Virus record (IMG/VR): IMGVR_UViG_3300032268_000293
Location: 15,832-79,831 of that record
DNA from: a virus
Strand: one strand, 5' to 3'
DNA length: 64,000 nucleotides
In this document: positions 8,564 through 37,191 of the stretch, one piece after another
Layout: each line of letters begins with the position of its first letter
How positions within the stretch are numbered: position 1 is the first letter of the stretch
Notes under the pieces: model-generated
Databases searched by the model: none
Seen by the model: only the letters and a program-made list of their open reading frames with translations
Told to the model about the DNA's origin: nothing
Program-made: the position numbers and the translations under genes

Positions 8564-8592
8564 ATTATACCTTACATACTATTTTTTGTCAA
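8564..8592 (-). promoter_or_regulatory. sigma70-type early promoter
   Basis: TTGACA-N17-TATAAT. Confidence 0.85.
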
Positions 8593-10254: not shown

Positions 10255-10410
10255 TCAGGCATCTTCTTCCTCCTCAAAGTCTTCCTCTTCATATATATCA
10301 CCACCACAGAATGGGCAATATACAACATCGGTTGACTGAAGATCGTCTACCTTAAATGAGATTTTTCCATGCGATCCGCATGATTCACAATCAAAATATT
10401 TAACTGCCAT
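10255..10410 (-). CDS. rubredoxin/zinc-ribbon-like small protein
   Basis: Translated by hand: MAVKYFDCESCGSHGKISFKVDDLQSTDVVYCPFCGGDIYEEEDFEEEEDA, with two CxxCG knuckles. Confidence 0.7.
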   Translation of the reverse strand: MAVKYFDCESCGSHGKISFKVDDLQSTDVVYCPFCGGDIYEEEDFEEEEDA

Positions 10411-13059: not shown

Positions 13060-13083
13060 CTGTGTTTCCTTTAGTTTCTAGTA

Positions 13084-14880: not shown

Positions 14881-14898
14881 TTAACACTCCAATTATTA

Positions 14899-15552: not shown

Positions 15553-15614
15553 TTTGTTTCCTTCATCAATAACTCTTTGAGCCCACATTTCCTCATTCTC
15601 AAGAATAGGAATAT

Positions 15615-16628
15615 TCAAATTTTCTTCCATACAGTATATCTCGCTTTCGCTTCTAAACCACTAACAGTGTATTCATCGATAAGTTTCAAAACCTTTTCTT
15701 GCGTGTAACCAGCAAGAATTAATTCATTTATATCTTTATATCCTGTCTCTGGCATTAAGGAAACAGTGTAACCAAGATCAATACACTTCTCAATTTGCTT
15801 ACACAGTTCTTTATTTCTTGGTTCGTTATCAAAAACTACAACGAGATTAGTAGAAAGACCGCGAAGATAGAGACTATCAAAACTTGCTCCTGCAACAGCA
15901 ATGGTGTTTGATAGAAAAAGAGAGTCAATCGGTCCTTCAACCGCATAAACTTTTTCAGCAAAATTGACACGTTCAAGTCCATAAATTCTCTCCATATCAT
16001 CATCAAGTTTGATTGTCATATATCTCGGTTGTTCATCGCCGAAAGCTCTACCCTGAAAAGCAAAAACTTTTCCGTGTTCATTAAAGAAGGGGATTACTAA
16101 TCGAGGATGATCATTATCTTCTGAGGTGTATGTATATTTAACTCTGTTAACATACTTCTTCCACTTTGGCGCATAAAAAAGATTTTCATAATGTGTGCGT
16201 GGAATTTTACGTTTCTCAACATATAACACAGCAGGATGATCTGCTGGCATTGTATCAATCCGTCTAAGACCACTAAGAGTATCATCTTGTAACTCGACAA
16301 AAACTGGCTTTGTGTCAGCAATTTCTATCGTTTTATGCGCATTATATCTCTTTGGACCCGACTTATAACGCTCCATTACATACTGCTCATAAAGGTATGG
16401 GTCAACGTGTTTAATCAGATTGCCTGCGTTTGTTGACACTCCACAATTATGACACTTGTAAAACAAGTCATTTTTTGAGGGATATGCGTATCCTCTTGCC
16501 TTCAGTTTGTTCTTGGTGCTATCGCCACAGAAGGGACAGGAGAAATTGAAGGTGTTGTCTTTCTTCTCCTTGAAATTTCGAAGGCGAGAAGAAAGTTGGG
16601 TGATGTATTTTAGATCAATGTATAGCAT
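15615..16628 (-). CDS. 61: DNA primase gp61
   Basis: CPFCGDS...CHNC zinc finger; Toprim EGPIDS and FDNE. Confidence 0.95.
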   Translation of the reverse strand: MLYIDLKYITQLSSRLRNFKEKKDNTFNFSCPFCGDSTKNKLKARGYAYPSKNDLFYKCHNCGVSTNAGNLIKHVDPYLYEQYVMERYKSGPKRYNAHKTIEIADTKPVFVELQDDTLSGLRRIDTMPADHPAVLYVEKRKIPRTHYENLFYAPKWKKYVNRVKYTYTSEDNDHPRLVIPFFNEHGKVFAFQGRAFGDEQPRYMTIKLDDDMERIYGLERVNFAEKVYAVEGPIDSLFLSNTIAVAGASFDSLYLRGLSTNLVVVFDNEPRNKELCKQIEKCIDLGYTVSLMPETGYKDINELILAGYTQEKVLKLIDEYTVSGLEAKARYTVWKKI

Positions 16629-20812: not shown

Positions 20813-22063
20813 TTAACTATCTGGGAACTCGATATCATCAGCAGCATCGCCAGTGATTAGAGAACGACCAGCAACTAATGTTTCATACTGAACACGACCA
20901 GCACGACCACCAGTTCCCTCAGTTCTTAGTACCCATCCTGGAGACATAACTGCTGCTGGCTCACCAGAACCAAGATCAGCAACGGCAGTAGCTTGATCAG
21001 CTGCAGCTTGGATTTCAAAGTACTGAGCATTGTTACCAGTACCAGAAATGTCAATAATAGTTTCTGTTGTATATGTAAGACCAGTCAATGTACCAGCAGT
21101 TGTAACAATCGCAGAACCAGCGTTAGTTTGTAAAGTAAAACCAGTTACGTTTGGTGATGTGCCAGTTACTGCAGATACTTTATATGTTGTTCCACTTGTA
21201 TATCCAGTAATAGTTCCTGTTCCACCTAATGTCCCAGTAATAGTAACACGATCGCCAGCAGCTAATGAAGAATTACCGCAAGTAAATTGACCACCAGTTC
21301 CTGAAGTAGCAACAGTTGCTGCAATAGTACCAGTTGTATTTGCAGCTTTTACGCTAAACACACCAGTTGCGAAATTAGCAGTAGCAACATAATATGATGT
21401 ATTGTTTGTTAGTCCAGTTGCGGCAGTACCACCACCATGGAAATATTTAACTTCTTCTCCAGCAACTAAACCATGAGTTGCATATGTAACAGTATCAGCA
21501 GCAGTTGTTATTCCAGATGTTGGAATGATGCGAGCAGGTTTAGCGATAGCAACTGTTGGCACTGATGTGTAAGAAGAACCTACGTTTGTCACAGCGATTG
21601 CTGTTACTGCGCCACCAGAAATAGTTGCTGTTGCTGCAGCTGATGAACCACCACCACCAGAGAATGTTACTGCTGGTGCAGTTCCGAGATATCTTGTACC
21701 AGCAAAAGAAATGTTAACATCAACAACATTGTCGCCACCAGCTTGCGCTTCTGTAGCATCAACACCGTATGTATTTCTCTTGTCTGCCAGAGACAAATTC
21801 TTAGGTGATTGCTGAACACGAACTGGCTCGGAAGCGATCGTTAGCGTTGCATTCGATCCTTCAAAATTACTTGTTAGTGTTAGAGCAGTATTGCTTGTGA
21901 TAGATAATACTTTATATTTTACTGTTCCGATAATTAATGTATCGCCAGCGTCGATGTCGGTAAGGAACGTTGTTCCTGAACCTGTTACTGCTGCTGATCC
22001 GTTGGTTACATCAATCGATGTTCCTGTTGGCGTCGCAGCGTCTTGTTTTCCCCAAAGTGCCAT
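20813..22063 (-). CDS. putative virion structural protein
   Basis: MALWG N-terminus and GWV...GRAGRVQYETLVA C-terminus; T/G/A-rich beta repeats. Confidence 0.7.
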   Translation of the reverse strand: MALWGKQDAATPTGTSIDVTNGSAAVTGSGTTFLTDIDAGDTLIIGTVKYKVLSITSNTALTLTSNFEGSNATLTIASEPVRVQQSPKNLSLADKRNTYGVDATEAQAGGDNVVDVNISFAGTRYLGTAPAVTFSGGGGSSAAATATISGGAVTAIAVTNVGSSYTSVPTVAIAKPARIIPTSGITTAADTVTYATHGLVAGEEVKYFHGGGTAATGLTNNTSYYVATANFATGVFSVKAANTTGTIAATVATSGTGGQFTCGNSSLAAGDRVTITGTLGGTGTITGYTSGTTYKVSAVTGTSPNVTGFTLQTNAGSAIVTTAGTLTGLTYTTETIIDISGTGNNAQYFEIQAAADQATAVADLGSGEPAAVMSPGWVLRTEGTGGRAGRVQYETLVAGRSLITGDAADDIEFPDS

Positions 22064-22080: not shown

Positions 22081-24165
22081 TTATCTAGAATTAGGAAGAT
22101 GTAATGGATAACCTGTCATCTCTACACCACTTCCTTTTTTCTTTGGTGTTGACCCCTTTTGTCTTGCGCCAGATGCAGAACCTTTCGGTCTACCACGCCC
22201 ACGTTTTTCTGTTGATGATTCTTTTTCATCATCAGCATCATATCCCTTTTCATCCTTATCCTTTTCACCCTTATAGTATTCTGTACCATATTTACCAGTT
22301 ACTTTACGAGAAGGAAGATCTGACATTTTAATTTCATCAAGATTAAATCCTTTAAATGAAACCAACTCTACTTCTTCTTTCTTGGTTCCAAGATCTGCTG
22401 ATAATTTTGCAGCGATTGCCATCTGGCGACGCTTTTCCATAGATTTGCCAGCAAATTGTGGAGCATCTGATTTCTTAAAGTCTTTAATAACATCGCCCAT
22501 AGATGCTTTTGTCATATTCATTTTTTCGGCGATCTCGATGAACTGCTCGATTAACGCCAATTCTTCTTGGGTAAATTCCATCTCTATTTCCTCGTTAGTA
22601 GGTTTTGGTAAGTGTGGGGTTACTTTGAACTTATGTAGTTTACCATCACCCAACTCTTTATGAGCCTGGATATGTACATTCTTACCATCGTTCTTAGTTA
22701 CTTTTCCTTGCATCTTGTCACCAGTCTTACTGGCGTAGAAGTCGACATGCTGATCAGATACTTTATGAATATCCATCTTAGCGTGGTCAGGATGCATAAC
22801 ACCTTGTGATGCGTATTCGCGACCATTAATACGAGCTTCTTCTATCTGAACTTCTTCAGACCACTCTCTGCGTTTTCTCATAAACTCAGAACGACCTCTT
22901 CCAACAGTACCACCGATTCTATCTGTTTTCTTTGCTGCAGTTTGAGCATTGTTGAAATGGCGGTCTTCTCCATCCATGTCGCCTTTAGCATTTGCTTTTG
23001 CTGCTTTTTTCATGTGACCCATAACTACATCACCATGAACTTTTCTGACTACCTTTTCAGTTGACTTAGTGTCATTACCATTGACATGTGCATTTGCAAA
23101 TTTGTTGTAGAGAGTTCGAACTGTTAAATCGCCTTCTTCTAGTTCAACTTCTTCTTTCATTTTCTTTTTCGCTAATGCCTGTTTAGCAAGTTCACGTGCA
23201 CGGCTCATTGGCGATTGCGTTGTTCCATCTGAATTTTTAACAGGTTTAGATTTTGTATATGGACCATCAAATGGTACATTATCTTTACGACTTAATGTTG
23301 CTCGTGAATTTGGTGAGAAGTTTGTTGAAGAACCGCCACCGATTTCATCACCTTTACGACGATAAGCAGATGCTGGCTTTTCGTAGTATCCTTCTTCTAC
23401 TTGTTCAGCTTCTTCTTTTTTCATTAGACCCTTAACAGCACCCTTTACCATGTTGATCTGCTTTTGACCAACTTTATGGAAGAAACCTTTTTTACTGTCT
23501 TCTTTGTCTGACTTCAATTTTGCAATTCTGTCATCAGATTGTTTATCGATAGATTTCTTTGCATGATCTGCAGCATCAGAACGCAATTTCTTAATCTGAT
23601 CGTCTGTTAATTCATTAATCTCTTCTTCTTTTACTGGAACGCAGTTAGGAACTTTCTTTCCGTTCTTCATTTTCATACCAACTGCAGTGTAACCTTTCCA
23701 GCAAGCATCCTTTAAATCTCCAGTTGCTTTTTCAACTTCATCGATTTGCTCAACTTCTTCTTTATACGCTAGTTTCGATGCTGCCTTCAAAACACCACTA
23801 AGACGCTTTGCTGACTTCTTAGATGCATCAGCAGACTTACCCATCTCGTGTTTTTGAACAGCTTGATTTGCTGACTTAGCAAACGCCAACTTAGGATCTT
23901 TAGCACGTTTCTCTGCATCTTTTGCTGAAGAAGCACGTCTCTCTGACTCACGTGCTTTATCTGTAGCATCGCCAGCAGCTTTATAAGCATAAGAAGCAAG
24001 AGTCTTTTTATCTAACTCATCTAATTCTTCAACTTCTTCTTTCATTTTCTTCGCACGCAGCTTGGCCAGATCTTCACCTTCGATCTTTCCGTCTTTATCT
24101 ACATCGATTTTTTGCTGTCCGCCTTTTAACGCTTCCAGGTATACTTGTCTAAATGGGTTGCTCAT
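22081..24165 (-). CDS. highly charged internal-head-like protein with AT-hook
   Basis: Repeated KEEVE/L-x-E junctions, CWKGY...VPNCVP module and KRGRGRPKG. Confidence 0.6.
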   Translation of the reverse strand: MSNPFRQVYLEALKGGQQKIDVDKDGKIEGEDLAKLRAKKMKEEVEELDELDKKTLASYAYKAAGDATDKARESERRASSAKDAEKRAKDPKLAFAKSANQAVQKHEMGKSADASKKSAKRLSGVLKAASKLAYKEEVEQIDEVEKATGDLKDACWKGYTAVGMKMKNGKKVPNCVPVKEEEINELTDDQIKKLRSDAADHAKKSIDKQSDDRIAKLKSDKEDSKKGFFHKVGQKQINMVKGAVKGLMKKEEAEQVEEGYYEKPASAYRRKGDEIGGGSSTNFSPNSRATLSRKDNVPFDGPYTKSKPVKNSDGTTQSPMSRARELAKQALAKKKMKEEVELEEGDLTVRTLYNKFANAHVNGNDTKSTEKVVRKVHGDVVMGHMKKAAKANAKGDMDGEDRHFNNAQTAAKKTDRIGGTVGRGRSEFMRKRREWSEEVQIEEARINGREYASQGVMHPDHAKMDIHKVSDQHVDFYASKTGDKMQGKVTKNDGKNVHIQAHKELGDGKLHKFKVTPHLPKPTNEEIEMEFTQEELALIEQFIEIAEKMNMTKASMGDVIKDFKKSDAPQFAGKSMEKRRQMAIAAKLSADLGTKKEEVELVSFKGFNLDEIKMSDLPSRKVTGKYGTEYYKGEKDKDEKGYDADDEKESSTEKRGRGRPKGSASGARQKGSTPKKKGSGVEMTGYPLHLPNSR

Positions 24166-24596
24166 TTAAGGTGACTCCTTATCATCCATCCGTGTTTTTC
24201 GTGAGTATCTATTCTGCCAGCGAGAAAATCAGCCAAACCTTGCTTGTTTTCTCTCGTAGCGATCTCCATTGATTTATTTAGGGATTCTAAAACTCCATCA
24301 TTCGCATTTTGAAGATCTTGGAGCATTTGTTCAACTGTAACCGACACATTTCCCTCATTTAATGTCTTATATTCGTATATTTCGGAAATAGTCCTTGGAG
24401 CATATTCCCTCATAGCACGAATTTCTTCTGCGATATGGTCAATAGAACCATAAACATCTTCATACAACTTACCAAAGAAATCGTGAAACTGGGAAAAGTT
24501 TATTCCTTCTACATTCCAATGGTGTGATTGCGCTTTAAAATACATAACAAATGTATTTCCAAGTAAAACTCTAAGCGACATTACTAATTCATTCAT
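24162..24596 (-). CDS. dps: Dps/ferritin-like DNA protection protein
   Basis: HHWNVEG..F..FHDFF..LY...IDHIAEEIR; HEKHGWM. Confidence 0.92.
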   Translation of the reverse strand: MNELVMSLRVLLGNTFVMYFKAQSHHWNVEGINFSQFHDFFGKLYEDVYGSIDHIAEEIRAMREYAPRTISEIYEYKTLNEGNVSVTVEQMLQDLQNANDGVLESLNKSMEIATRENKQGLADFLAGRIDTHEKHGWMIRSHLK

Positions 24597-24878
24597 TTAA
24601 CAATCCCATGCTTTTCTAGACCAATAATTTGCGCTAGTCTTATCATTAGTATTTCCCTGTCCAGCTGATCTTGCGCAGTAAGATTTTTTGCGAGCAGGAA
24701 TATGTTTTTTAATGGAAAGGTTTTTATCCCCAAAATTTACCTTTTGTGCTTTACCATCTCCGTCTGGGTCAACGTAAACCTTTGACTTTTTTACATCACC
24801 AGACATAGGTTTATTAAGTGTAACGTTCTTTCCCTGATATGTAGCTTCGTTTAACAAGTATTCTTTGAAGGGAATCAT
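24597..24878 (-). CDS. conserved T4-like protein (DUF6321-like) with capsid-targeting-like N-terminus
   Basis: MIPFKEYLLNE; KVNFGD...RKKSYCAR...YWSRKAW. Confidence 0.65.
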   Translation of the reverse strand: MIPFKEYLLNEATYQGKNVTLNKPMSGDVKKSKVYVDPDGDGKAQKVNFGDKNLSIKKHIPARKKSYCARSAGQGNTNDKTSANYWSRKAWDC

Positions 24879-27800
24879 TTCGTGAACCTCTTGTGTTGTA
24901 ATCTTGATTTTTCGATTTGACGAATTCTCGGAGCAACTCTACGTGCTAGTCTATCAACCAACGCTTTTCTAGTTTGCAAGAATCTCTCAACTCTTTCTTT
25001 TTCTGGTAATGTTGCTTTGTTTGGATCTTTACGGAGCATTCTGCGCTTGATCATTGATGTAGCCAAACGACGAGCACGCTTGTTTATTGTAGATTGATTT
25101 GATGTTTTTCTCAATGCGATTTGCGCACGAACCTCACGTTTTGATTTGGTTCTAGCAAAACGCTGTTTACGACGGATGCGTTCCATACGAGAGATCTCGA
25201 GAATGACAATCTTATCTTCTTTGAGTTTTGCTTCTTCTTCATCATCTTCGTAACCATCAGTATCTAATTCTTCACCAGTCTCGTCATCAACGATTGCTAT
25301 CTCATCGTCTTCATATGCGTCAATGATATGCTCTGGTTCTGACATTCCAGTAATTTCGTCTTCAAAATCATCGTCCTCGAAATCTTCTTCTTCACTTTCT
25401 TTCTCTTCTTCTTCAGTCATATGTCTTTTTTGCATTGCAGTAAAAGAAGACTTTTTATTAAGATCATCTAATTGAGAAATATTTTGAATACCAAGGAATC
25501 TCTTTATACTTTCGTAGGACATTTTTCCTGTGTCGCCTACCTTAAATTTATCATCCTCTTCGCAGCCACAATCTTCATCTAATTGAGATTCTTCTTTAAC
25601 TTGTTTCTTTTGCTCTGCTTCTTTTTTCTCACGTGCTTGACGTTCTTGTTTAGCAAGACGTGACATCTTCTTTAGGAAAGATGGTTTGTTGTAGTATGCA
25701 GTAGCCTCGCCAAGTTCTTCTCTTGACTGCAAATAATCTCTAACAGTAGTGATGTAATCTTGCGCTAGTGTAATTTTAGATTGAACCCACTCTGGCATAT
25801 TCTCATCATCTTCGATCATGTCGATCAAATCTTCGCAATTACGTAGAGTAGTTTGTAGTTGCGTGCGAGCCATTTGACCTTCATAGTCATACTCGCCTTT
25901 GTCGATTGTTTTTGCTGCTTCTTCTAGAATATCAAAGTCTTCTTTTAAACCAAACGCTGCGGCAACTTTCTTGTCGCCATGCTTAGTGCGCAGATAGTGA
26001 GAGATAGCGTGGTCTTTAGTTTTGAATTCAGAAGTATCTATAATCTTATGTTGAGTCTTGATTAATCCACGTAGAGACTTAATATCATGATTCTTCTTAA
26101 GAGAGTCGTACTCTGCCTTAATATCTTCATCGATCTCTTCAGCTTCTTCTTTAATGTTTGTTGGCTTGTCTTTATATACTGTACCAAGATGCTTTGCGCC
26201 AGACTTATGTAACGAATTACGTCCATTGGCATTCATGGTGTGGTTGACATCATAACCACCAGATTTATGCTTATACACTTCAATACCATCTAAGTTATCG
26301 CGATGTGTTTTAACTTTGTCAGTAGCATAAGAAACTGCTTGATCTAGTTTTTTGAATGGAGCATTTTCGCTTAGTTCAGTTTCTTCTCGCATCTGCTTGT
26401 ATTTATCGAGGAGATCTTTGTTCTTAGCATAATCTTTTGTTGGCATAGCATAACGAGCAGTCTTAGCATTATCTAAATGATACAGTGATTTTTTTGAGTC
26501 ACCTTTCATATGCGCAGCAACTGCCTTATCCATATGGTACTTAAAAGTGCCTTCTTCTAAGTCATCTTCTTTTGAAGCATTCTTAAAACGCAATTTATGT
26601 GCACGAATCTTTCTACCATGTTTGTCTAACTTAGTGTCAGAAGTCGAAACCTCATCATATCCCTCAGTTACTTTTTGTGGTAGTAATTTCTCGTCGTAGT
26701 TAATACCAGCTTCTCTTGCTGTTTGAAGCATGTTTTTTACAACTGAAAGATATTCAGCACGCATTGGTTTGTTTCTAATTTTTCTTAATGCATTATTAAC
26801 AAGCTGGTCAGCAGAAGAAGACTTCTCGACATCTGTAACACCAAGAGCATCAGCAATAATTCTTGCCACTTTTATTTTATCTGATGAACTAAACTTCATC
26901 TCTATTAGTTCTTTAAAAGTTTTCATAGATTCTTCCATGCCCTCTTCTTTTTCCATGTGATATTGTGCTCGAACTTGGTCAATATCGTGTATTGCGTGAT
27001 TGATATAATCTGCGTGGTGATGTAGAACACCGAGTTTAGCAAGATATTCTTGTGCTTTCTGAGCAGAAATGTTAAATTGCTCAAATTCTTCGTCTGTCAT
27101 CTCATCATTGCCAACTGCTTTATTTAAAATACCGTAATAATCATCAGTTGCTTTCAATGCATTTAAAATAGCAACTGGGTCTAAATCTTCTTGTTTAGTT
27201 AAATGATGAAAAGCATCCAACACTTGTGGATGCTGTAAATTTTTTGGTGTGTAGTTTTTATAAGAGAACTTTGTTGGCTCATCTGCTACTGTGTAATCCT
27301 CAACCAACGTCACATCGTGCAACCACTTACGATGTGTATTACCATCAGAATCAACGACAGTAAGATAATTACTACCTCTATTAAGTATTTCATATTTGTG
27401 ATCATTAGACTCAACGATCTGACCAACTTTAAACACTTCACCTCTATAATAGGACTCTCTCAACCAATCTGTTACTGTAACTTGTTCTTTTACTGCGTCA
27501 AGACCCATTGCTTGTCTCAACTCATTCATCAGTCTGCGACCATCAGCTGTGGTCAATGTGGTTGGAAGACCTTTCTTAAATGTATCAAAATCGCCTTTTT
27601 TAGCAGCATCACGCATTTTGGTACCAGACATTCCAGATGCGTCATCGCTATCTGGATCACGCTCTCCAGCCGAAACTACTTGTATGGTGTTGAAATTGAA
27701 CTCTTTACCGTTGTACTGATTCAACAGTTTTGTATATTCCATAACACGATCGCTTCCTGCGACCATGATAATGTCTTTGTATTTTTTGTTGAGTTCTTTG

Positions 27801-28084
27801 GCGACTTCGATAAATGTTCTTGTGGTTGGACCAGCAGCCATAAAATTGGCTGTTGGGAACATTCTTTTTAGGAAATAGACTTTGCGGTCTACTGGGAGAG
27901 GGTTTTTGGTTTTGTCCTGAGTTCTGGACGCATAGATTACATGAGAAGCATTATGTGTAGATGCAAGACGCTCTACAGCACGAACCAACAGTTCGTGACC
28001 TGTCGTTGGTGGCTGGAAGCGACCAAACGCAAAAACTACTTTTTTGGAAGGGAGTTCCTTCAGAAATTGGGTATATGCTTTCAT
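24875..28084 (-). CDS. HIGH-superfamily (cytidyltransferase-like) nucleotidyltransferase fused to internal-protein-like modules
   Basis: FGRFQPPTTGH, VAGSDR, SAGERDPD and MSGTKMR motifs in about the first 200 aa; long charged remainder; basic C-terminus. Confidence 0.85.
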   Translation of the reverse strand: MKAYTQFLKELPSKKVVFAFGRFQPPTTGHELLVRAVERLASTHNASHVIYASRTQDKTKNPLPVDRKVYFLKRMFPTANFMAAGPTTRTFIEVAKELNKKYKDIIMVAGSDRVMEYTKLLNQYNGKEFNFNTIQVVSAGERDPDSDDASGMSGTKMRDAAKKGDFDTFKKGLPTTLTTADGRRLMNELRQAMGLDAVKEQVTVTDWLRESYYRGEVFKVGQIVESNDHKYEILNRGSNYLTVVDSDGNTHRKWLHDVTLVEDYTVADEPTKFSYKNYTPKNLQHPQVLDAFHHLTKQEDLDPVAILNALKATDDYYGILNKAVGNDEMTDEEFEQFNISAQKAQEYLAKLGVLHHHADYINHAIHDIDQVRAQYHMEKEEGMEESMKTFKELIEMKFSSSDKIKVARIIADALGVTDVEKSSSADQLVNNALRKIRNKPMRAEYLSVVKNMLQTAREAGINYDEKLLPQKVTEGYDEVSTSDTKLDKHGRKIRAHKLRFKNASKEDDLEEGTFKYHMDKAVAAHMKGDSKKSLYHLDNAKTARYAMPTKDYAKNKDLLDKYKQMREETELSENAPFKKLDQAVSYATDKVKTHRDNLDGIEVYKHKSGGYDVNHTMNANGRNSLHKSGAKHLGTVYKDKPTNIKEEAEEIDEDIKAEYDSLKKNHDIKSLRGLIKTQHKIIDTSEFKTKDHAISHYLRTKHGDKKVAAAFGLKEDFDILEEAAKTIDKGEYDYEGQMARTQLQTTLRNCEDLIDMIEDDENMPEWVQSKITLAQDYITTVRDYLQSREELGEATAYYNKPSFLKKMSRLAKQERQAREKKEAEQKKQVKEESQLDEDCGCEEDDKFKVGDTGKMSYESIKRFLGIQNISQLDDLNKKSSFTAMQKRHMTEEEEKESEEEDFEDDDFEDEITGMSEPEHIIDAYEDDEIAIVDDETGEELDTDGYEDDEEEAKLKEDKIVILEISRMERIRRKQRFARTKSKREVRAQIALRKTSNQSTINKRARRLATSMIKRRMLRKDPNKATLPEKERVERFLQTRKALVDRLARRVAPRIRQIEKSRLQHKRFTK

Positions 28085-28113
28085 TTAATCCATCTATATG
28101 AGTAATAATCAAT

Positions 28114-28120
28114 TATTTAG
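28114..28120 (-). promoter_or_regulatory. possible T4-type late promoter variant
   Basis: CTAAATA about 30 nt upstream of the nucleotidyltransferase start. Confidence 0.45.
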
Positions 28121-28192
28121 TCATCTTTTATTCTCATAGTACCTTTACAGGCGATACCGTTAATACTACAGATGCTGTACCTTTTAAATCGC

Positions 28193-28429
28193 TCATACTA
28201 TTGCTAGCAATCCTTGTGCTGCTGCTACAATCCAACGGCAAGCAACTTCGTCGTTAGCCAATTCTTGTTGCGCTCTGATCTCGGCGACTTCTTTAACAAG
28301 AAAATCATATTCTTCTTTAGTTAATTGACCACTTGTATATTGCTCGTAAAATGAGATCAAATCATTAGCAAGAACTCCTGCTGCTCCACCCATTCCTGCT
28401 TGTTGCTGTAGTTGTTCTAATAGATTCAT
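28193..28429 (-). CDS. hypothetical protein
   Basis: Coupled to the upstream lipoprotein by an ATGA overlap. Confidence 0.65.
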   Translation of the reverse strand: MNLLEQLQQQAGMGGAAGVLANDLISFYEQYTSGQLTKEEYDFLVKEVAEIRAQQELANDEVACRWIVAAAQGLLAIV

Positions 28430-28770
28430 CTTCCTCTCCATACATTAGTAATTATTTCTACTCTTGTTTTCTGTAGTTTTAATACACCTTCGCAGAATTT
28501 TTCATTGCTAGATGCTTGGGCTTTTTTCAACGCTTCTTCTAAATCACCCAACGCTTGTGCTTGCGGGTCTTTTCTTAAAGTAGCATAGGTTTTTAATTGC
28601 TCAACTTTCGAAAATGTTGTTTTCCAATCTCTATCAACGCAATTTAGTTTATCGACTGACAATTTTACTTCAACTAATCTATCGAACATAACTGGATCGT
28701 GTGGTTTTGGCATTATGAAAGAGCAACCTGTTAGCACAACTAATGCTATACCTGCTATTAGTTTCTTCAT
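28426..28770 (-). CDS. lipoprotein
   Basis: Lipobox LTGC. Confidence 0.75.
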   Translation of the reverse strand: MKKLIAGIALVVLTGCSFIMPKPHDPVMFDRLVEVKLSVDKLNCVDRDWKTTFSKVEQLKTYATLRKDPQAQALGDLEEALKKAQASSNEKFCEGVLKLQKTRVEIITNVWRGR

Positions 28771-28772
28771 GT

Positions 28773-29984
28773 TTACCTCGGTCTATTTAAAAAGTTATTT
28801 CTAGAAAATTCAAGACGATCAACCAATTTAACAACACGATCTCCCTGAACAGCTACGAATCCTTCTGGTGTTGTAGGAACAAGAGAATTACCTCGCTCAA
28901 CAAAACCAGAAACCCCTGTCTCTAATTTATTTAATTTGTTTACAATTATCATTTTACATGTAACAATCAAAGAAAACGCTTCATACGCTTTCTCAAGAAC
29001 AACTCTGTTCTTATCGAGAAAGTCAATTATCTGCTGTCTCTCATCATTCTTCTTTTGTTTGGTGGCAGCTGTTTTAACTTTATCAATATCTTTTTGCAGT
29101 TCATCATGAACATACTGAGCAAACCCATGCGCCTGAGAGACACCAACGTAACTACCAGCACGAACATTAGCATTATTGTATTTTGCCATCAATGGATACA
29201 GCTGCTTATGTGTTGAGAGATAAGATAAGAATGATGTTGGTATTGCTACTTTAAGTTTCTCTAACTGAGCATGTGCTTTTAGAATAGTGGCTTGCTCTGA
29301 TGCAGAGAGCGATAGATCCTTTGTTTTGTCTTTAAGGATAGCGTCATCAACAAACACATTCTTTGATTTCTTTAATCCAGCAATAGAATAACCGAAATTG
29401 GCTTTCATTGTAGCAGGATCAGAGCCAGTGTAGTAAGTATGAAAAATAATACCCATTTTACTTGCGATGATTCTTCTACCAAGATCACTATCAGCAACGA
29501 CAGCATATACAATAGTATTGGGTTTGAAAGTAACATGTTTTACTCCATCAATTGTTTGTGGCTTTAGATCGCCTTCAGTATAAAGAAAATCGCCCTGAAC
29601 AGTTCCATTAATACCAAGATCTCTGCAGTATTTTAAAGCATACTTCATTTTCTCAACAAGACCTGGAGAATGTCCATGGTTTGCGATAATATCTGCTTCT
29701 GTTCTGTTAAGTTTCGGATTCGCATTGAATGCTGACTTTGAAGCGACCCAATAATCTGTTCCTGAATCGTGAACAATAATTGAAGGAGAACCATCCCACT
29801 TCGTAGTAATTAATGTTCCTGATGGTTTATTATACAAAGCATTGACATAAATCTGAATACTCTCTATGGCAAAATCTAAACCTGCCTTACCTTCCTCGAA
29901 CATCAAATCTTCTAGATGCGAGAGATGTTTTAAACGAGTAGTATCGTTTACTGCTTCTGCTATGTAACCTTTTAAATTATACAT
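28773..29984 (-). CDS. DUF6267-like protein with ATP-dependent ligase/capping-type motifs
   Basis: TKWDGSP (motif I), QGDFL, PEGFVA (IV), VKLVDRLEFS (V). Confidence 0.65.
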   Translation of the reverse strand: MYNLKGYIAEAVNDTTRLKHLSHLEDLMFEEGKAGLDFAIESIQIYVNALYNKPSGTLITTKWDGSPSIIVHDSGTDYWVASKSAFNANPKLNRTEADIIANHGHSPGLVEKMKYALKYCRDLGINGTVQGDFLYTEGDLKPQTIDGVKHVTFKPNTIVYAVVADSDLGRRIIASKMGIIFHTYYTGSDPATMKANFGYSIAGLKKSKNVFVDDAILKDKTKDLSLSASEQATILKAHAQLEKLKVAIPTSFLSYLSTHKQLYPLMAKYNNANVRAGSYVGVSQAHGFAQYVHDELQKDIDKVKTAATKQKKNDERQQIIDFLDKNRVVLEKAYEAFSLIVTCKMIIVNKLNKLETGVSGFVERGNSLVPTTPEGFVAVQGDRVVKLVDRLEFSRNNFLNRPR

Positions 29985-29992: not shown

Positions 29993-31294
29993 TTATTTGA
30001 TTACGATGTATAGAGAACTATCAGTGCTCAACTTCTTAGAACTAAAATAACAGAATGTCATATTCTCCTGAAATTTGGTTTTCGGTGAAATCATGAAACT
30101 ATAAAGATATGAGATCAAGTTCGCGAATCTATCTTTAGTTAATTTATCTGCCTTACTGAACAATGCTTCTGCTTGCTTGTAGTCTTTAATCGTATTTGAT
30201 AAACGTGGGAATTTGGTAAACATCTCTTTTAATTCTGTTTTGGCTTTGGTATAATCGCTTGCTGATACACCAACACCACTACGAACAGTATAACCATACT
30301 TCTGCTTTTGATGTGGTCCATACTGTTTAGCATCAACAGCACCAAGTTGATAACCTGCACCAATAAATCTACCTTCTAGAGATACATTTAATGTTGTGGC
30401 AGATGCTTTAAAACCACAACGAACAGCAAAACCAGATTTCGTTTGGACAATAAAATTAGCAAAAGTATCTGACAAATCTACTTTAGAAAATGTCATGTCA
30501 TAATCTAATTTCTGATTCATTTGAGATGCTGGGTCAGTTATCTCGAGAACAGCTTTATCTTCAGTAACTTGCTTTAAAGAAATAGGAATAAGATCTTTCT
30601 TCTTGAATGCTGCAGCAATACCATTATTCAGTTCTTCAATAGAAGTTGCATTTACAAGTTTCTTAATGTCGTATGTTTTCTTAATCATCCAAACGTCAGC
30701 TGGATTCCAGTTGTCATTTGCTTTACCAGATAATTTTCTGCCAGTCTTATACAAGTTATCAGTTAGATTTGACGCTTGTCTTTCATAATGATACCCTTTG
30801 TTACTGCCCATAAACTTCTTTATAACAACTGTTTGTTTTGCAGCGGATTCATAATAAATTGATTGGTATAAGTTTTTCTTGCTACCAATTTTCTGCATAA
30901 TCTGTTCTTCAGTTAAGGTTTTGTTCGATTCAATTGCTGCCTCAAACATATACATGCTAATCAATTCTTTTAACTCAGTAAGAGCACCTGTGTTGCTCTT
31001 GGAATTTTCGCTGAAATGATTAAAACAATTATTGATTGAACTTTCAGAACCTTTTATAAGAACAACTTTTTTATTGGCATCAATTAGAGTTATAGTATCT
31101 TTACCAGATGCTAATTCAATTACAAGACTTATGTCTTTTGTCTTTGCTGTTTTTGTGATGGTGAACACCGATTCACCAAGTTTATACTTGTTATCAGTAA
31201 ACTTCTTTCCTGTTGATGGTGGAATCTTATCTGATTCCTTTAGAACTATTTTATGTCCCTCACCATACTTTGAACTACCAACAATTGATGCCAT
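29993..31294 (-). CDS. hypothetical protein, possible PD-(D/E)xK-like nuclease fold
   Basis: WNPADVW...IPISLKQ. Confidence 0.5.
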   Translation of the reverse strand: MASIVGSSKYGEGHKIVLKESDKIPPSTGKKFTDNKYKLGESVFTITKTAKTKDISLVIELASGKDTITLIDANKKVVLIKGSESSINNCFNHFSENSKSNTGALTELKELISMYMFEAAIESNKTLTEEQIMQKIGSKKNLYQSIYYESAAKQTVVIKKFMGSNKGYHYERQASNLTDNLYKTGRKLSGKANDNWNPADVWMIKKTYDIKKLVNATSIEELNNGIAAAFKKKDLIPISLKQVTEDKAVLEITDPASQMNQKLDYDMTFSKVDLSDTFANFIVQTKSGFAVRCGFKASATTLNVSLEGRFIGAGYQLGAVDAKQYGPHQKQKYGYTVRSGVGVSASDYTKAKTELKEMFTKFPRLSNTIKDYKQAEALFSKADKLTKDRFANLISYLYSFMISPKTKFQENMTFCYFSSKKLSTDSSLYIVIK

Positions 31295-31306: not shown

Positions 31307-32026
31307 TTAACTCTGTTTTTTTCTTTGCTTACAAAGAACTCTCTCATATTTATTGTTCCATTTAATGACTTGTTTAAACAACTTGGGTATTGCTTGGTTG
31401 TTGTGAGCATCGTAATTAAATGTTCTGAGATAGTATCGTAGAGTTTTTGAATCTCGACTTTTTCTGGCTCTAGAAAGTAATTGAGTTATTGGAACATTTG
31501 GTCGATTTCTTTTAAAGTCCAAGTATATACAATGGGCATATGCTTGTATTTCATCAAACTCCGAAAGATATTTTCTTTCTTCGTTCTTTTTAAGCTGTTT
31601 TACTTTTTTGTAGGGAAGAACATAATTTGACCACTCATCACATCTTCTATCAAACTGCATAAAATGCACAAGTTCATGCATAGCAATTTGAATGAGTCTG
31701 AATTTAAATTTATTCCACGTTGTTTCTGTAAACGGGAATTTGTCAAAGTAATCTGTATAAATGTGTATAGCACACTGTCGTTCTTGTGGGTCATATTCAC
31801 CACCCATTGCGACGTTTGTTAAATAGAATTTCGACTTCAGTTTCTCTGGGCGATACTCAACTTTAGTGCGCCATTTTTTGAAGTAGTTTGATAGACCCTT
31901 AGAATCGTTGCGATACAGGTCTAAATCGTTCCAAATTTTTGATGGAATGAATTTTGCTCTGAACGGACGTTCAGAGAAAGGTAGAAAATCTATGAAATCG
32001 ATATTTACTTGTTTGAGATGTTCCAT
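31307..32026 (-). CDS. putative HExxH zinc metalloprotein
   Basis: AMHELVHFMQ with downstream DEIQAYA. Confidence 0.6.
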   Translation of the reverse strand: MEHLKQVNIDFIDFLPFSERPFRAKFIPSKIWNDLDLYRNDSKGLSNYFKKWRTKVEYRPEKLKSKFYLTNVAMGGEYDPQERQCAIHIYTDYFDKFPFTETTWNKFKFRLIQIAMHELVHFMQFDRRCDEWSNYVLPYKKVKQLKKNEERKYLSEFDEIQAYAHCIYLDFKRNRPNVPITQLLSRARKSRDSKTLRYYLRTFNYDAHNNQAIPKLFKQVIKWNNKYERVLCKQRKKQS

Positions 32027-32094: not shown

Positions 32095-33444
32095 TTATCC
32101 GAAAAATTCGTCTAAACTCTGGGTTTCTTGCGTTTCGAAGTGTTCATCGAACATATTTCGCGAATTTTTAGCCAAGTTTGGATCGAAATTCGTTTTTGTA
32201 AGAAGTTCGTTTAGATACCCAGTTGGCTTTTGTTCAGCCAAATCAACATAATGCTGGGCAATACGCTTACGATCAAACTGCTGGATTAACTCATAGTTGT
32301 TGTTGACGATACGCATATACTCAGTCTCTGGCATATCGCAGTACTCAGCGATCTTTTCGCCATATTCTTTTGGTGTATAGGACTTCTTAAGCATACAGTA
32401 GTTGACCCCTGCTTTCAGAAGAACACCATTACCTTCTTCGTTGTTGGAAACGCCATAGTTCACAGCGATGGGCACAGTCCCGATACGCATAGCATCCACG
32501 ACAACCCGATTGAAATGCTCACCAAAAGTGTTAGACCAACTAGAATCAATAAGAAATCTAGAAGTTGATAAAATCTCGTCACGTTTTCCTCCAGAAATAA
32601 AACCAAGATACTCGAAGTTGCCTGAGTTTTCGGCATTTTCCCAAATACGTTTACCTTCCCTATCAGGTGTTACGTCTGGGTCATATTGCCTAGTAGCAAA
32701 ATAATCTTCTTTACATTTTTCCTTCGACATCATGTATGCTGCTTCAATACCATAACCACCAACAAGGGTTTTGACATTTTTCATGTAAGGTACTGCACGA
32801 ATAAGGTCGTCCACACGCTTCCAGCGTTTAAATGTCTGTATTGACAGGATTTTGTTCTCGCGACCAGCAAACTGCGGAGTAGGTGGTACGCCAGCGATAT
32901 CCTGAGGGTTTAAAATTAACGCTCGAGGTGTGGACATAAAATCAGCTGAGTCATACGCAGCAGGGTGTACGCATGCGAGACCAGCAAAATGTTTTTCAAA
33001 TATACTAATCCAAGGATAGAGTTTCTTTAGATTTGCGTCATGAATAATTACAATTTGTTTTGCTTTGACATTCTCAATCATTGGCAACCAATCTTTATAT
33101 TTCTCGGTGTCCTTGTTTTTAAAACCGAAAATAGATTGCCAAATAATAATATCGTGTTTGTTTGCGTCTTCAACAAATTTGTCGATGGACTCTTTTACTT
33201 TATAAGAATAATATGGTGCCATCCAACCATCACCTTGATGAACAGGATAACCAGAACCAATACCAATCTCCCATCCTTCCTTCAATTCAGAAGGAATCTC
33301 AACAGGACGAACTGTCTTTGTGCCTTTAAGGTAGGCAAAATTTACTTCATGACCAAGTTCTTTTAATCCTGCCATTAGATGTTCGCAGTGATTAATGATT
33401 CCACCAAAGTTGTTGAAGGTGTGCATTACCATTAAAATTCTCAT
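32095..33444 (-). CDS. GT-B fold glycosyltransferase, probably acting on DNA
   Basis: MRILMV...GGI N-terminus, FKRWKRVDDLIRAV, GEHFNRVVVDAM; in an operon with the TET/JBP gene. Confidence 0.85.
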   Translation of the reverse strand: MRILMVMHTFNNFGGIINHCEHLMAGLKELGHEVNFAYLKGTKTVRPVEIPSELKEGWEIGIGSGYPVHQGDGWMAPYYSYKVKESIDKFVEDANKHDIIIWQSIFGFKNKDTEKYKDWLPMIENVKAKQIVIIHDANLKKLYPWISIFEKHFAGLACVHPAAYDSADFMSTPRALILNPQDIAGVPPTPQFAGRENKILSIQTFKRWKRVDDLIRAVPYMKNVKTLVGGYGIEAAYMMSKEKCKEDYFATRQYDPDVTPDREGKRIWENAENSGNFEYLGFISGGKRDEILSTSRFLIDSSWSNTFGEHFNRVVVDAMRIGTVPIAVNYGVSNNEEGNGVLLKAGVNYCMLKKSYTPKEYGEKIAEYCDMPETEYMRIVNNNYELIQQFDRKRIAQHYVDLAEQKPTGYLNELLTKTNFDPNLAKNSRNMFDEHFETQETQSLDEFFG

Positions 33445-34274: not shown

Positions 34275-34490
34275 TTACCTCTTTAAATTTATGTATTCTT
34301 TAAAATAATTATCAAATTTGTTAATTAAGCTCTCAATGTCACTGCTGTTTGTAAGATCCTCAACTATGCGCTTCTCATCCATATTAAACTGTTTCGCATA
34401 TCTTCTTGCGATACTTAGAAGAGTCGCAACTCTCATGTTAGGACTCTTCAAATTTAATGAAAGTTTTTGTCTTTCTTCACGAAAACTCAT
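34275..34490 (-). CDS. hypothetical protein
   Basis: 71 aa, coupled to the dioxygenase. Confidence 0.6.
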   Translation of the reverse strand: MSFREERQKLSLNLKSPNMRVATLLSIARRYAKQFNMDEKRIVEDLTNSSDIESLINKFDNYFKEYINLKR

Positions 34491-35800
34491 ACAAAGAATT
34501 CATCAATATCAGCCTTTACCGCATTGGGATGATACTTCGCCAAATCTTCTTCACCAAGTTTGTTGCGAAGGTAATCATACCACTCTTGTTCTTCCCACAT
34601 TCCTGGGGAAACACCATTCCATAGTTTTTTCCATAGAGGGTGTTCTTTGTTCAATCTACGAGACTCAACATATTCATATCTAGTATTTTCGTATTCGTAC
34701 GATCCAAGTTCTAACATGTTTTCACGCAAATAAACAACAAGCGAAACACGCTCAGAACCTTCTTCGCATACGATTGGTGTGTTACCATGAATAACCTCAT
34801 GATTGTTTACCAACAACAAATCTCCTGGACGAACATTTACGGCAATACGAATTTCAGGGAAAATCAAATAACCACCTGTGTATCTACCATCATTAGAAAG
34901 TGTCAACAGATTTGAAAGACCATCAGAAAAGTCGCCAGCATCACGATGAGCAGCAGTTCTAAATGTTTTATTTACTGTTACTGTAGTAAAAGGTGTCTCA
35001 GGAATAACAAATCTTGGATCAATTTTATCTGTTGCTACTTTCTGAGCGGAATATCTTGTTGGTAATAGTGTCTCAAAACCTCTAGCCAAATGCTGAAGGA
35101 AGGGATACGCCATCTTAAACTTCTCAAAATTATCACGAGTATATGTAGTCGCACGACCAAACGGAATACGAGGATAACGATCGAACCAACCTGCGATACC
35201 AGAATCAACTGGATTACCATAGGATGTTTCACTAACCATCTTCATAGTTTCTTGTGTTGATTCTGCTCTCTGCGCAGGTGTCAACGGAATAATACTGTCA
35301 ACCCACTCATCAAAATTAAATTTGTTGCGGAAACGTGAGATAACCCAAACATTATTCTTACCCGAACCCAATGCTTTCAAACGTGACTCTGGTGTTGGAT
35401 AACGTGAACGAATTTCTTCAATAACATCCTCATCTCCGAGTTTGGCTTTTTCTGCGTTGAGTAAAGCAAGCATTAGTTCTTCCTGATAATTTGTTACCCA
35501 CTCACGACCTTCGCCTGTTACCGATGTCCCTTCTTTGATACCAGAAGCAAGTCCACGATTTTCAGTACGAACAGCAGCCTCACGCAATCCAGCATATGCT
35601 GCGTCTTGTTCTTCCTTTGAGAAAAAGTTTTTTCTAAACTTAAAGGCAATATGCCTTTCGTCTGGATCAACTCCATAACCAGATGGAAGATAACAATCCG
35701 TATCCTCTTCAATCAAAATATCATAATTGGACTCATCAACAAACATACCAAGTAAATGTTCGCAGTCATGTTTTTGTTCTAGTTTAATTACACGTGTCAT
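34487..35800 (-). CDS. TET/JBP-family 2OG-Fe(II) 5-methylpyrimidine dioxygenase
   Basis: TPFTTVTVN..FRTAAHRDAGD (HxD), HEVIHGNTP (distal H), RVSLVVYLRE (2OG-binding R). Confidence 0.85.
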   Translation of the reverse strand: MTRVIKLEQKHDCEHLLGMFVDESNYDILIEEDTDCYLPSGYGVDPDERHIAFKFRKNFFSKEEQDAAYAGLREAAVRTENRGLASGIKEGTSVTGEGREWVTNYQEELMLALLNAEKAKLGDEDVIEEIRSRYPTPESRLKALGSGKNNVWVISRFRNKFNFDEWVDSIIPLTPAQRAESTQETMKMVSETSYGNPVDSGIAGWFDRYPRIPFGRATTYTRDNFEKFKMAYPFLQHLARGFETLLPTRYSAQKVATDKIDPRFVIPETPFTTVTVNKTFRTAAHRDAGDFSDGLSNLLTLSNDGRYTGGYLIFPEIRIAVNVRPGDLLLVNNHEVIHGNTPIVCEEGSERVSLVVYLRENMLELGSYEYENTRYEYVESRRLNKEHPLWKKLWNGVSPGMWEEQEWYDYLRNKLGEEDLAKYHPNAVKADIDEFFV

Positions 35801-37191
35801 ACTTTAAACCCTTCGAAATTGTTTTCTTCTATTCTTTTACCAAAAGAACTTTGATCAAATAGAGGAACATCATTATCAACTTTACCCATACCACCCAAAT
35901 TACTTTGAGCACTCATCTCAACATCATATAGACGCATATGTTTACGATCAACTCCAACAATAAATCTCTTATAGAAATTTGGATCAGAATAACGATTCTT
36001 CAACTGTTTCACCATAATCTGATTCAACTCCGCAAGTTCCTCTGTACTAATTAGAGCAATCATTAAGTCTGCTGTTGCTGGCAAACCGAAAGATTCAGAA
36101 GTATCTTCAAGACCAACATCAGTGTTACTATAACCAGAACGTGTAGTTTGTGTAGCAGAAACAATTGGCACTTTATACTCAACAGCCAAACCACGAAGTT
36201 CTTCTGCGATTGCTTTAATATATGTATAAGAGTTTACATTTCCACTCAGTTTCAAACGCTGACTTGCACAAATATTAATATAATCGATAAAGATAATGTC
36301 TGGCGTAAAGTCTTTCTTCAATCTCAACTCTTCAAGCAAAGCACGGAAATGACCAGCATGAGCAGAAGTGGTAGGATATTCTTTTACGACCAATTTACCA
36401 TTCGTCTTTTCTTTCAACTTCTCAACACGAGAATCAAAGACCCTACGCTCAACCATCTTCAATCCTTCCATAGAAAGATCAAGTAGGTTTGCGTCAATAC
36501 GTTCTGCAATCTTTTCCTCAGCCATCTCCATGGTTATGTATAAAACATTAACACCCTTCATCAACATAGACGAAGCAAAATGACACATTGCCAAAGATTT
36601 ACCAACACCAGTACCAGCAAGAATAATGTTCAGCGTTTTCTTACTGACTCCTCCGTTCGTGATTTTATTGAGAAGTTCAATGTCGAAAGGAATCTTCTCT
36701 TCAACCCTGTGATAAAAATCATAACGATCAGCAGCATTTTCAAGATAGTCATGACCAACATGATTATCAAATGAAACGGCAAGAGCATCGCTAAGAATAG
36801 AAACAATCGCATCTTGGTTACGGTTTTTATCTTTTCCATCAATTATTTTGATTGAACTGAGAATAGCATTATAAACTGCTTTATCTTTACAGAATTTTTC
36901 TGTTGATTCAACCAACCACTCCTCATTAGAATGTTCATCCGCAAAATCTTCAACAAGTTCGTTAATGTTTTTTACTTGTTCGTCAGTAACATCAGTTCTA
37001 TTACTTACTTCAATTTTAACAATATCTTTACTTGGAACCTTACCATACTTGTTAAAGAATTTATCAATTTCCTCAAAAACAATACGATCTGTTCTCTCAG
37101 TAAAATACTCAGGAACCAGAAAGGGCATAACCTTTCTGGAATATTCCTCATTAGAAATTAGATTTGAAAAAATCTGATTTTCAATTCTCAT
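35797..37191 (-). CDS. 41: replicative helicase gp41
   Basis: [21 protein letters not shown] and KQLKNRY motifs. Confidence 0.97.

Follow-up and report, generated by a model that had tools for sequence, protein, structure and literature searches.

T4-type capsid-targeting leaders on candidate head-packaged enzymes of a marine T4-like myovirus

The window analysed here is a 64-kb stretch (positions 15,832 to 79,831) of the 79.8-kb IMG/VR contig IMGVR_UViG_3300032268_000293, which is rated 49% complete. Three proteins of 1069, 403 and 93 amino acids (aa), encoded between positions 24597 and 29984 of the window, begin with a short leader resembling the capsid-targeting sequence (CTS) of phage T4, MKTYQEFIAE (PMC8442874). 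We consider it probable that these three proteins are packaged into the phage head through this T4-type leader. This view, put forward earlier in a sequence-only reading of the window, is supported by the enrichment and clustering of the motif, its conservation at the amino-acid level, its portability between proteins, the gp21-type prohead protease of relatives, a late promoter motif and the presence of homologues in virions. Nearly all genes of the window lie on the minus strand. DNA and protein searches identified Pelagibacter phage HTVC008M, Methylophilales phage Melnitz and cyanomyoviruses as the nearest relatives and, by its sequence, the window phage is classed as a marine T4-like myovirus of the Kyanoviridae type. 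The features central to the argument are listed below, with scores from the profile described in the next section.

22081-24165, minus strand: 694-aa protein, N-terminus MSNPFRQVYLE
22333-22365, minus strand: internal leader-like element LVSFKGFNLDE (aa 601-611) of the 694-aa protein
24597-24878, minus strand: 93-aa protein
24846-24878, minus strand: leader of the 93-aa protein, MIPFKEYLLNE, 11 residues, 8.1 bits
24875-28084, minus strand: 1069-aa protein, 'cytidyltransferase'
26900-26926, minus strand: internal leader copy MKTFKELIE (aa 387-395) of the 1069-aa protein, 9.2 bits
28055-28084, minus strand: leader of the 1069-aa protein, MKAYTQFLKE, 15.7 bits
28114-28120, minus strand: late-promoter-like motif CTAAATA, ~29 nucleotides (nt) upstream of the start codon of the 1069-aa gene
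28773-29984, minus strand: 403-aa protein, DUF6267
29955-29984, minus strand: leader of the DUF6267 protein, MYNLKGYIAE, 6.4 bits

A T4-type leader in the window and its relatives

The sequence-only reading had quoted four T4-like N-termini and two internal copies from this locus. All four N-termini are present, on the minus strand, at the positions listed, and, of the internal copies, MKTFKELIE begins at residue 387 in the 1069-aa protein and LVSFKGFNLDE at residue 601 in the 694-aa protein. In T4 the first ten residues of IPIII are sufficient for packaging, with positions 4 and 7 governing targeting and positions 8 and 10 governing processing (PMC9026906). At the targeting positions the marine leaders carry Tyr4/Phe7 (1069-aa protein), Leu4/Tyr7 (403-aa protein) and Phe4/Tyr7 (93-aa protein), and the processing-site residues (Leu/Ile-type at 8, Glu at 10) are found in FLKE, YIAE and LLNE, respectively.

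The frequency of such N-termini was assessed with a regular expression (regex) that had been fixed beforehand from the T4 rule (N-terminal M-x-x-hydrophobic-x-x-hydrophobic-[LIVMFY]-x-E, with seven hydrophobic residues allowed), expectations being derived from the internal frequency of the motif. Three of the 128 open reading frames (ORFs) of the contig matched the loose form, compared with 0.4 expected, and two matched the strict form (0.03 expected). A complete relative, G001 (165 kb, 205 ORFs, terminal repeats), which together with a second genome, G002, matches the locus at 81-86% identity, contained six matches against 0.59 expected, four of which fell inside nine consecutive genes (permutation p = 0.002). 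Across 80 further related IMG/VR loci, 111 of 1210 ORFs matched where 3.0 were expected. The Poisson tail probabilities of these counts range from 4e-4 to ~1e-129.

A position-specific scoring matrix trained on 68 distinct leaders, from which close relatives of the window were excluded, ranked the 1069-aa protein first, the 93-aa protein second and the 403-aa protein third among the 128 contig ORFs (15.7, 8.1 and 6.4 bits). The next-best N-terminus scored 0.8 bits and the 99.9th percentile of the null was 2.5 bits. Of the 21,920 internal positions that the contig offers, the best is MKTFKELIE, while the T4 CTS itself scores 10.2 bits on this marine profile. By contrast, the 694-aa protein scored poorly at its N-terminus (-3.2 bits) as well as at the internal copy (-5.6 bits), much like the UvsX N-terminus described below; both lie outside the ten-residue profile and were rejected as leaders. 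The earlier claim of T4-like N-termini is thus upheld for the 1069-, 93- and 403-aa proteins but not for the 694-aa protein, the observation being secure for these three N-termini and for the internal MKTFKELIE, but weak for the fourth protein. The profile scan proposed with the sequence-only reading places the three proteins at the top of the contig, and the outcome that would have told against it, a motif no more frequent here than among early ORFs, was not seen, the motif being far commoner here than elsewhere in the genome.

It is very improbable that the resemblance of these short peptides to the T4 CTS arose by chance. Loose matches do exist, in UvsX and at the 694-aa N-terminus, but the Poisson tails and the clustering given above, the retention of the leader across homologues of 30% identity and its recurrence on unrelated families (both described below) argue against a fortuitous origin. 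UvsX, a loose-regex match, was rejected as a tagged (leader-bearing) protein; its N-terminus scores -5.9 bits and the S-CREM2 recombinase is outside the virion list. The UvsX N-terminus is kept in the UvsX of many relatives, with the form MDFLKEIVKE in cyanophage-like relatives, and it provides a useful negative control.

The leader conforms to the consensus M-[KLI]-x-F-[KS]-x-[FY]-[LI]-x-E. In a logo of 79 distinct leaders, position 2 is Lys, Leu or Ile in 89%, position 4 is Phe in 78% (the remainder Leu and Tyr), position 7 is Phe or Tyr in 85% and position 8 is Leu or Ile in 86%, while position 11 is frequently Ala or Glu; the logo is far narrower than the regex with which leaders were found. 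Synonymous codons at the conserved positions occur near genome-wide background ratios, indicating that it is the peptide, rather than the mRNA, that is under selection, and a nucleotide-level explanation of the motif is ruled out by this codon usage. When the tagged proteins of the 80 related loci were clustered with the leader removed and at 60% mutual coverage, they fell into 31 clusters that comprise at least 12 clearly unrelated families. These include the adenylyltransferase, DUF6267, a 205-aa family, DUF6321-containing small proteins, and proteins of 215, 300, 321 and 413 aa. Pfam scans of ten other tagged families returned DUF6321 and sub-threshold matches only.

DUF6267 illustrates the portability of the peptide. 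Homologues at 30-37% identity retain leader positions 4, 7, 8 and 10 while the other positions vary (MLNLKEYIRE, MKKLKDFIKE, MKTFKSFLVE and MLQFKNFIKE). Because cyanophage-type DUF6267 copies are without the leader, beginning at a conserved HLEHxED block, and diverged homologues possess it, the leader can be viewed as a separable N-terminal add-on. Consistent with this view, AlphaFold2 models display a short helix at residues 2-11 in each leader, outside the folded domain; the predicted local distance difference test (pLDDT) score is below 50 for residues 1-19 of DUF6267 and averages 55 over the first ten residues of the adenylyltransferase.

One tagged family, of 204-211 aa (at 4573-5190 in related locus L008), which is not in the window and adjoins DUF6267 in some relatives, contains TIFDID near its N-terminus. 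This may be a HAD-type phosphatase signature; Pfam searches of the family gave only a sub-threshold match to DUF2608.

Virion detection, late promoter motifs and the prohead protease

Proteins bearing the leader are present in the virions of cultured relatives. In the parts of the data of Sullivan et al. 2010 covered here (PMC3037559), purified virions of S-SM1 yielded 25 peptides of the T4-GC190 cytidylyltransferase, a cyanophage core protein, compared with 18 for the portal gp20 and 8 for gp21. The gene for this enzyme starts MKKFSAFLNE. The DUF6267 protein of S-SM1 (T4-GC71), which is without the leader and adjoins the tagged gene, is not in the parts of Table S8 covered. The whole genome of S-CREM2 (PMC10665884) was scanned with the regex, counting the annotated GTG start of ORF14, and six ORFs were tagged.

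ORF6: SAM hydrolase, tagged, in virion proteome
ORF13: hypothetical protein, tagged, in virion proteome
ORF14: kinase, tagged, in virion proteome
ORF136: hypothetical protein, tagged, in virion proteome
ORF154: cytidylyltransferase, tagged, in virion proteome
ORF175: 55-aa protein, tagged, not in virion proteome

Mass spectrometry detected five of the six tagged ORFs in S-CREM2 virions, compared with 47 of the 213 that are without the tag (Fisher p = 0.003). In S-CRM01 the virion-reported kinase starts MISFDQFLSE, and the cytidyltransferase starts MKLFNQFFKE. The sequence-only reading had named absence from the virions of related cultured phages as evidence against packaging. Tagged homologues are, on the contrary, present in purified virions of S-SM1, S-CREM2 and S-CRM01.

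Leader-like elements were also observed ~16 residues past the annotated start of two proteins, LSLDSFIKE in S-CRM01 (locus L029, 5453-6004) and LRFASFMAE in S-CREM2 ORF12 (7704-10313), the latter annotated as a Cas9-like nuclease and present in the virion proteome. Such offset elements reflect either mis-annotated starts or a longer propeptide.

It could be argued that the leader has another role, as an amphipathic helix for binding a membrane or complex, a stability or degradation signal or a feature of translation, and that its bearers were carried over with virions as abundant late proteins. In favour of this proposal are the short helix predicted at residues 2-11, the reading of the cleavage site from sequence, and the caution of the S-CREM2 authors that abundant late proteins could contaminate CsCl-purified virions (PMC10665884). 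The near-background codon ratios, however, leave no nucleotide-level signal, and the T4 CTS, a proven head-targeting peptide, scores highly on the marine profile. The shared leader itself argues that the S-CREM2 virion enzymes are not contaminants, as does the excess of tagged over untagged ORFs in those virions. In the S-SM1 data covered, the tagged cytidylyltransferase is represented by more peptides than gp20 or gp21, whereas the untagged DUF6267 is unlisted even though it adjoins this detected gene. A role unrelated to the head is, on balance, unlikely.

The timing of expression is also consistent with packaging. The CTAAATA motif upstream of the 1069-aa gene predicts that it is expressed late, when proheads assemble. 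G001 has seven copies of the canonical T4 late promoter, TATAAATA, one of them 31 nt ahead of the adenylyltransferase gene and another 51 nt ahead of a scaffold-sized ORF, and CTAAATA precedes the sheath- and tube-sized ORFs, a presumed baseplate-region gene and the gene directly upstream of DUF6267 (in this genome the labels gp22 scaffold, tail sheath, tail tube, portal and capsid are read from position and size). The prohead protease family Peptidase_S77 (gp21) was detected above the Pfam cut-off in both G001 and G002. In G001 the protease gene sits among ORFs with the order and sizes of portal, core, scaffold and major capsid genes, and an LFE|A site is located at residue 53 in the ORF of capsid size.

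By analogy with T4, the following mechanism is proposed. Cargo proteins would be made late, each with a ten-residue T4-type capsid-targeting leader, whose aromatic residues at positions 4 and 7 would dock the cargo to the scaffolding core during prohead assembly. A gp21-type prohead protease would then cut after the Glu of the [LI]-x-E site, and the mature cargo would be retained in the head and exit with the DNA at infection. The putative cargo comprises the RNA-ligase-like DUF6267 enzyme, the adenylyltransferase within the 1069-aa chain and the basic 93-aa protein, with the 694-aa protein as a possible fourth member. Docking, cleavage after Glu, residence in the head, ejection and a role for the enzymes in the host are all inferred from what is known of T4. 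Ejection with the DNA is likely, after the example of T4 Alt and the internal proteins, and a role against host defences is a reasonable guess.

A related possibility is that the leader brings proteins into the prohead core, where they would act as accessory scaffold or core components and be degraded, expelled or kept un-ejected. The large proteins of the locus do have scaffold-like features, with many hydrophobic-x-E sites and charged low-complexity stretches, and in T4 gp21 also cuts the core proteins gp22, gp67 and gp68. Against such a role, homologue peptides were recovered from mature virions, the cargo includes well-folded enzymes in which the KxDG, TxGH and SxxxxR motifs are intact, and T4 keeps and delivers CTS-tagged proteins of comparable size (PMC9026906). 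This possibility, under which the proteins would not be an injected enzyme kit, is quite improbable.

Several observations nevertheless weigh against packaging by a T4-type leader. The loose matches at the 694-aa N-terminus and in UvsX show that some resemblance arises by chance. Leader-less proteins of the S-SM1 locus (188, 195 and 197) were also detected in virions, which indicates that the tag is not the sole route into the particle. The virion evidence covers homologues of the adenylyltransferase and not tagged homologues of DUF6267 or the 93-aa protein, nor the window phage, and contamination was raised by the S-CREM2 authors. Cleavage after Glu is read from sequence alone, the S-CREM2 supplement being without a peptide list, and in the HTVC008M adenylyltransferase neither position 9 nor position 10 is Glu. 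Finally, a gp21 gene was not found in the window's own contig, which is 49% complete and without the head module.

The tagged proteins and their neighbourhood

The domains and motifs of the candidate cargo proteins are as follows.

29790-29801, minus strand: KxDG of DUF6267 (KWDG, aa 62-65), motif I with the predicted catalytic lysine
aa 1-258 of the 1069-aa protein, minus strand: adenylyltransferase and small beta domain, PPAT/NMNAT-type
27299-27310, minus strand: TLVE (aa 259-262 of the 1069-aa protein), joint of the adenylyltransferase and the next module, aligning with the end of MKSFKQTINE|D
aa 901-950 and aa 951-1069 of the 1069-aa protein, minus strand: acidic stretch and basic tail, from the charge profile
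23632-23709, minus strand: Cys-containing domain (aa 153-178) of the 694-aa protein
22180-22203, minus strand: AT-hook-like RGRGRPKG (aa 655-662) of the 694-aa protein

The 403-aa protein matches PF19782 (DUF6267) at 289 bits, and its AlphaFold2 model has a pLDDT of 87.8. Among 24 homologues, Lys62, Asp64 and Gly65 are kept in at least 90%, while Glu374, Gly375, Val377 and Lys386, which form an EGxV...K block (aa 374-386), are invariant. In a VIA-align search against 48,161 chains, RNA ligases occupied all of the top nine places (Z 8.5-6.7) and DNA ligases came next; the best matches were the Naegleria nick-sealing ligase (Z 8.5), fungal Trl1 (8.0), T4 Rnl2 (7.8) and T4 Rnl1 (7.3), although Z-scores of this size can also come from common arrangements. 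A Foldseek search of the model gave no match at E <= 0.001, the E-values being 0.1 or worse, and phmmer found none among Protein Data Bank (PDB) sequences. The fold search, combined with the near-invariant KWDG and the invariant EGxV...K, suggests that DUF6267 is an RNA-ligase-like covalent nucleotidyltransferase, with fold support that is coherent and of moderate strength. DUF6267 would thus share the KxDG lysine motif and the fold with the T4 Rnl1/Rnl2, Naegleria and Trl1-type RNA ligases (176-202 aligned residues at Z 8.5-7.3), but differs from them in a long insert of helices (aa 228-351), which separates the N-terminal portion of its fold from the EGxV...K motifs, and in having no sequence-level match to any solved structure. 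The T4 ligases are not known to be virion proteins, unlike the proposed DUF6267 cargo.

The 1069-aa protein matches PF01467 at 21.3 bits (cut-off 21), as well as phrog_3041 and phrog_395, 'cytidyltransferase'. Foldseek searches with the first ~260 residues identified PPAT (E 4e-6) and NMNAT (E 7e-6), both with a probability of 1.0, whereas phmmer of the domain against PDB sequences returned none. The TxGH and SxxxxR motifs of HIGH-signature nucleotidyltransferases are intact, as TTGH (aa 27-30, His30 invariant) and SGTKMR (aa 153-158, in which Ser153, Lys156 and Arg158 are kept in at least 90% of homologues). The modelled fold and the motifs identify the N-terminal part as a nucleotidyltransferase of the HIGH type, most similar to PPAT and NMNAT. 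The labels given to the two enzymes in the sequence-only reading, 'nucleotidyltransferase' and 'ligase-like', are thus both backed by fold and motifs. DUF6267 and the adenylyltransferase match different halves of phrog_455 (a 764-position profile), implying that fused forms exist and suggesting that the two enzymes may act together.

The remainder of the 1069-aa chain shows how leaders and modules are combined. The protein corresponds to the 264-aa adenylyltransferase of locus L034 joined to an 844-aa ORF that, in L034, carries its own leader, MKSFKQTINE|D. In five loci an independent tagged ORF begins at the TLVE joint, with leaders MKSFKQTINE, MKSFKETIKE and MKTLKQLLE, and TLVE is a candidate internal gp21-type cleavage site. 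Modules that form a gene of their own carry their own leader, and fused modules retain no more of it than x-[LI]-x-E|D, which in the window protein is TLVE|D. This pattern fits a leader made up of a docking part and a protease site, with large chains that would be cut into modules. The internal copy MKTFKELIE, which is preceded at 7 nt by a weak Shine-Dalgarno-like GGAAG, may be either an internal start or an internal cleavage site. The 1069-aa chain is probably polyprotein-like with internal cleavage sites. Beyond the adenylyltransferase it is charge-rich, as are the 93- and 694-aa proteins, and all are without recognisable function.

The 93-aa protein is basic, with an isoelectric point (pI) of 9.7, and belongs to phrog_7595; its relatives start MISFKEYILNE and MITFKEFLLNE. 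In Melnitz, the 93-aa domain and the Cys-containing domain of the 694-aa protein are both within the adenylyltransferase ORF. The 694-aa protein is lysine-rich and basic (pI 9.3), and its Cys-containing domain occurs as a separate tagged protein of 122-128 aa (MISFKEYLRE and similar) in loci L034, L035, L037 and L038. Its internal leader-like element is variable but kept in diverged homologues, directly before a conserved C-terminal AT-hook-like (RGRGRP) module. The latter, which ends GYPLHLPN, may be a small DNA-binding peptide freed inside the head. Its context and module sharing leave the 694-aa protein a candidate, though a weaker one, and the odds that it is a fourth cargo protein are roughly even. 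A search for homology linking the 694- and 93-aa proteins to GC1454 and GC1455, which were detected in S-SM1 virions, found none.

The locus is flanked by the gp41/UvsX replication genes on one side and by the nrd genes on the other. The other genes of this region are as follows.

37181-38239, minus strand: UvsX (RecA family)
35797-37191, minus strand: gp41 helicase
34487-35800, minus strand: Tet/JBP dioxygenase (PF12851, 80 bits)
32095-33444, minus strand: group-1 glycosyltransferase (PF00534)
31307-32026, minus strand: 239-aa HExxH protein with the zinc-protease-like motif HELVH
29993-31294, minus strand: 433-aa protein, phrog_1462, without a Pfam match
28426-28770, minus strand: 114-aa lipoprotein, signal peptide ending LTGC
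28193-28441, minus strand: 82-aa acidic protein with a hydrophobic C-terminus
24162-24596, minus strand: 144-aa Dps-like protein
20813-22063, minus strand: 416-aa protein starting MALWGK, resembling a cyanophage 'S-layer domain' virion protein
12064-16628, minus strand: primase, thymidylate synthase and nrdAB-sized ORFs

The order UvsX, gp41, DUF6267, cytidyltransferase, MALWG protein and gp61/nrd is common to Melnitz, HTVC008M, S-PM2, P-SSM4, S-CRM01 and S-SM1. The Dps/ferritin-like protein (PF00210 at 83.7 bits, phrog_3636) keeps its position between tagged genes in many relatives. The lipoprotein gene overlaps the 82-aa gene, and this pair, which could be spanin-like or serve in superinfection exclusion, is kept within the cargo cluster of relatives. 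The Dps-like protein, the lipoprotein and the 82-aa protein are all without a leader and were discounted as cargo.

The Tet/JBP 2OG-Fe dioxygenase and group-1 glycosyltransferase genes are directly upstream of the cargo locus, and their domain assignments suggest that the phage DNA may contain hydroxymethylated, glycosylated cytosine. In T4, DNA with glucosylated hydroxymethylcytosine is paired with the packaged inhibitor IPI*, a candidate parallel to the two enzymes beside the cargo locus. The 433-aa and 239-aa HELVH genes sit between the glycosyltransferase and DUF6267 genes, and a late-like motif, AATAAATA, is located ~50 nt upstream of the start of the 433-aa gene.

Relation to known systems and significance

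The closest known counterpart is the T4 CTS system. Shared features are a ten-residue leader in which positions 4 and 7 are aromatic or hydrophobic, position 8 is Leu/Ile and position 10 is Glu, a gp21-family protease (in the complete relatives), late promoter motifs, and diverse cargo that has only the leader in common, part of which, like T4 Alt, is a large enzyme. The marine locus thus appears to work like the T4 CTS system, whose sequence-testable features are found here or, in the case of gp21, in the complete relatives. The two differ in host range and phage family (marine hosts and Kyanoviridae-type myoviruses), and in their cargo, which is unrelated to the T4 internal proteins (DUF6267 and a PPAT/NMNAT-type adenylyltransferase and, in relatives, kinases and a SAM hydrolase). 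In contrast to T4, the cargo genes occupy a conserved syntenic locus between gp41 and nrd, and modules are fused into chains of 0.7-1.1 thousand residues with internal leader copies. The marine system is known from sequence and from the virion detection of homologues, while processing and ejection are proposed by analogy.

Prohead proteases of the giant phages phiKZ, 201phi2-1 and SPN3US recognize the cleavage motif S/A/G-x-E. In these phages, as described in the portions of the literature covered here (PMC5694885, PMC7411985), many head-internal proteins, some of which are enzymes, are cut at x-x-E by a T4-like prohead protease, and their propeptides are thought to direct incorporation; the likeness is by description, the leader in the marine phages being a short T4-type decapeptide. 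The Dar proteins of phage P1 (DarA, DarB, Hdf and Ulx) are packaged in the head and ejected with the DNA to act against host defence and, in the parts of the reports covered (PMC9024508, PMC12810830), their N-terminal regions are capsid targeting signals. By this description they are set apart from the marine system, belonging to an unrelated lineage that uses other signals and is without gp21-type protease logic.

Related phages have already been noted in the T4 literature as packaging varied proteins via a CTS (PMC9026906). A literature search, which did not extend to subscription journals, found no paper linking a CTS to cyanophage or pelagiphage virion enzymes. What is new here is the extension to Kyanoviridae-type phages, the cargo families, the conserved locus with its fusion architecture, and an account of unexplained virion proteomics.

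The cargo invites the suggestion that an RNA-ligase-like enzyme and an adenylyltransferase form an injected repair or counter-defence kit that acts before phage gene expression. At present this is a speculative and rather doubtful proposal. Were it correct, the kit might, for example, reseal RNAs cut by abortive-infection nucleases or restore a nucleotide cofactor depleted by the host, and the decapeptide would be a tag with which the injected proteome of oceanic T4-like myoviruses could be read from metagenomes.

T4-like myoviruses that infect cyanobacteria, SAR11 and methylotrophs rank among the commonest viruses of the sea, and the virions of several of them contain enzymes that have hitherto been hard to place, such as the cytidylyltransferase, kinases and SAM hydrolase, whose status as contaminants was left open by the authors who reported them. 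A T4-type leader provides a simple mechanism by which enzymes would come to be in marine virions. It also gives DUF6267 a fold and a likely setting. The ten-residue motif may make it possible to predict, from the genomes of uncultured phages, which proteins are packaged and probably injected, and it marks a conserved, fast-shuffling cargo locus in which counter-defence functions may be found.

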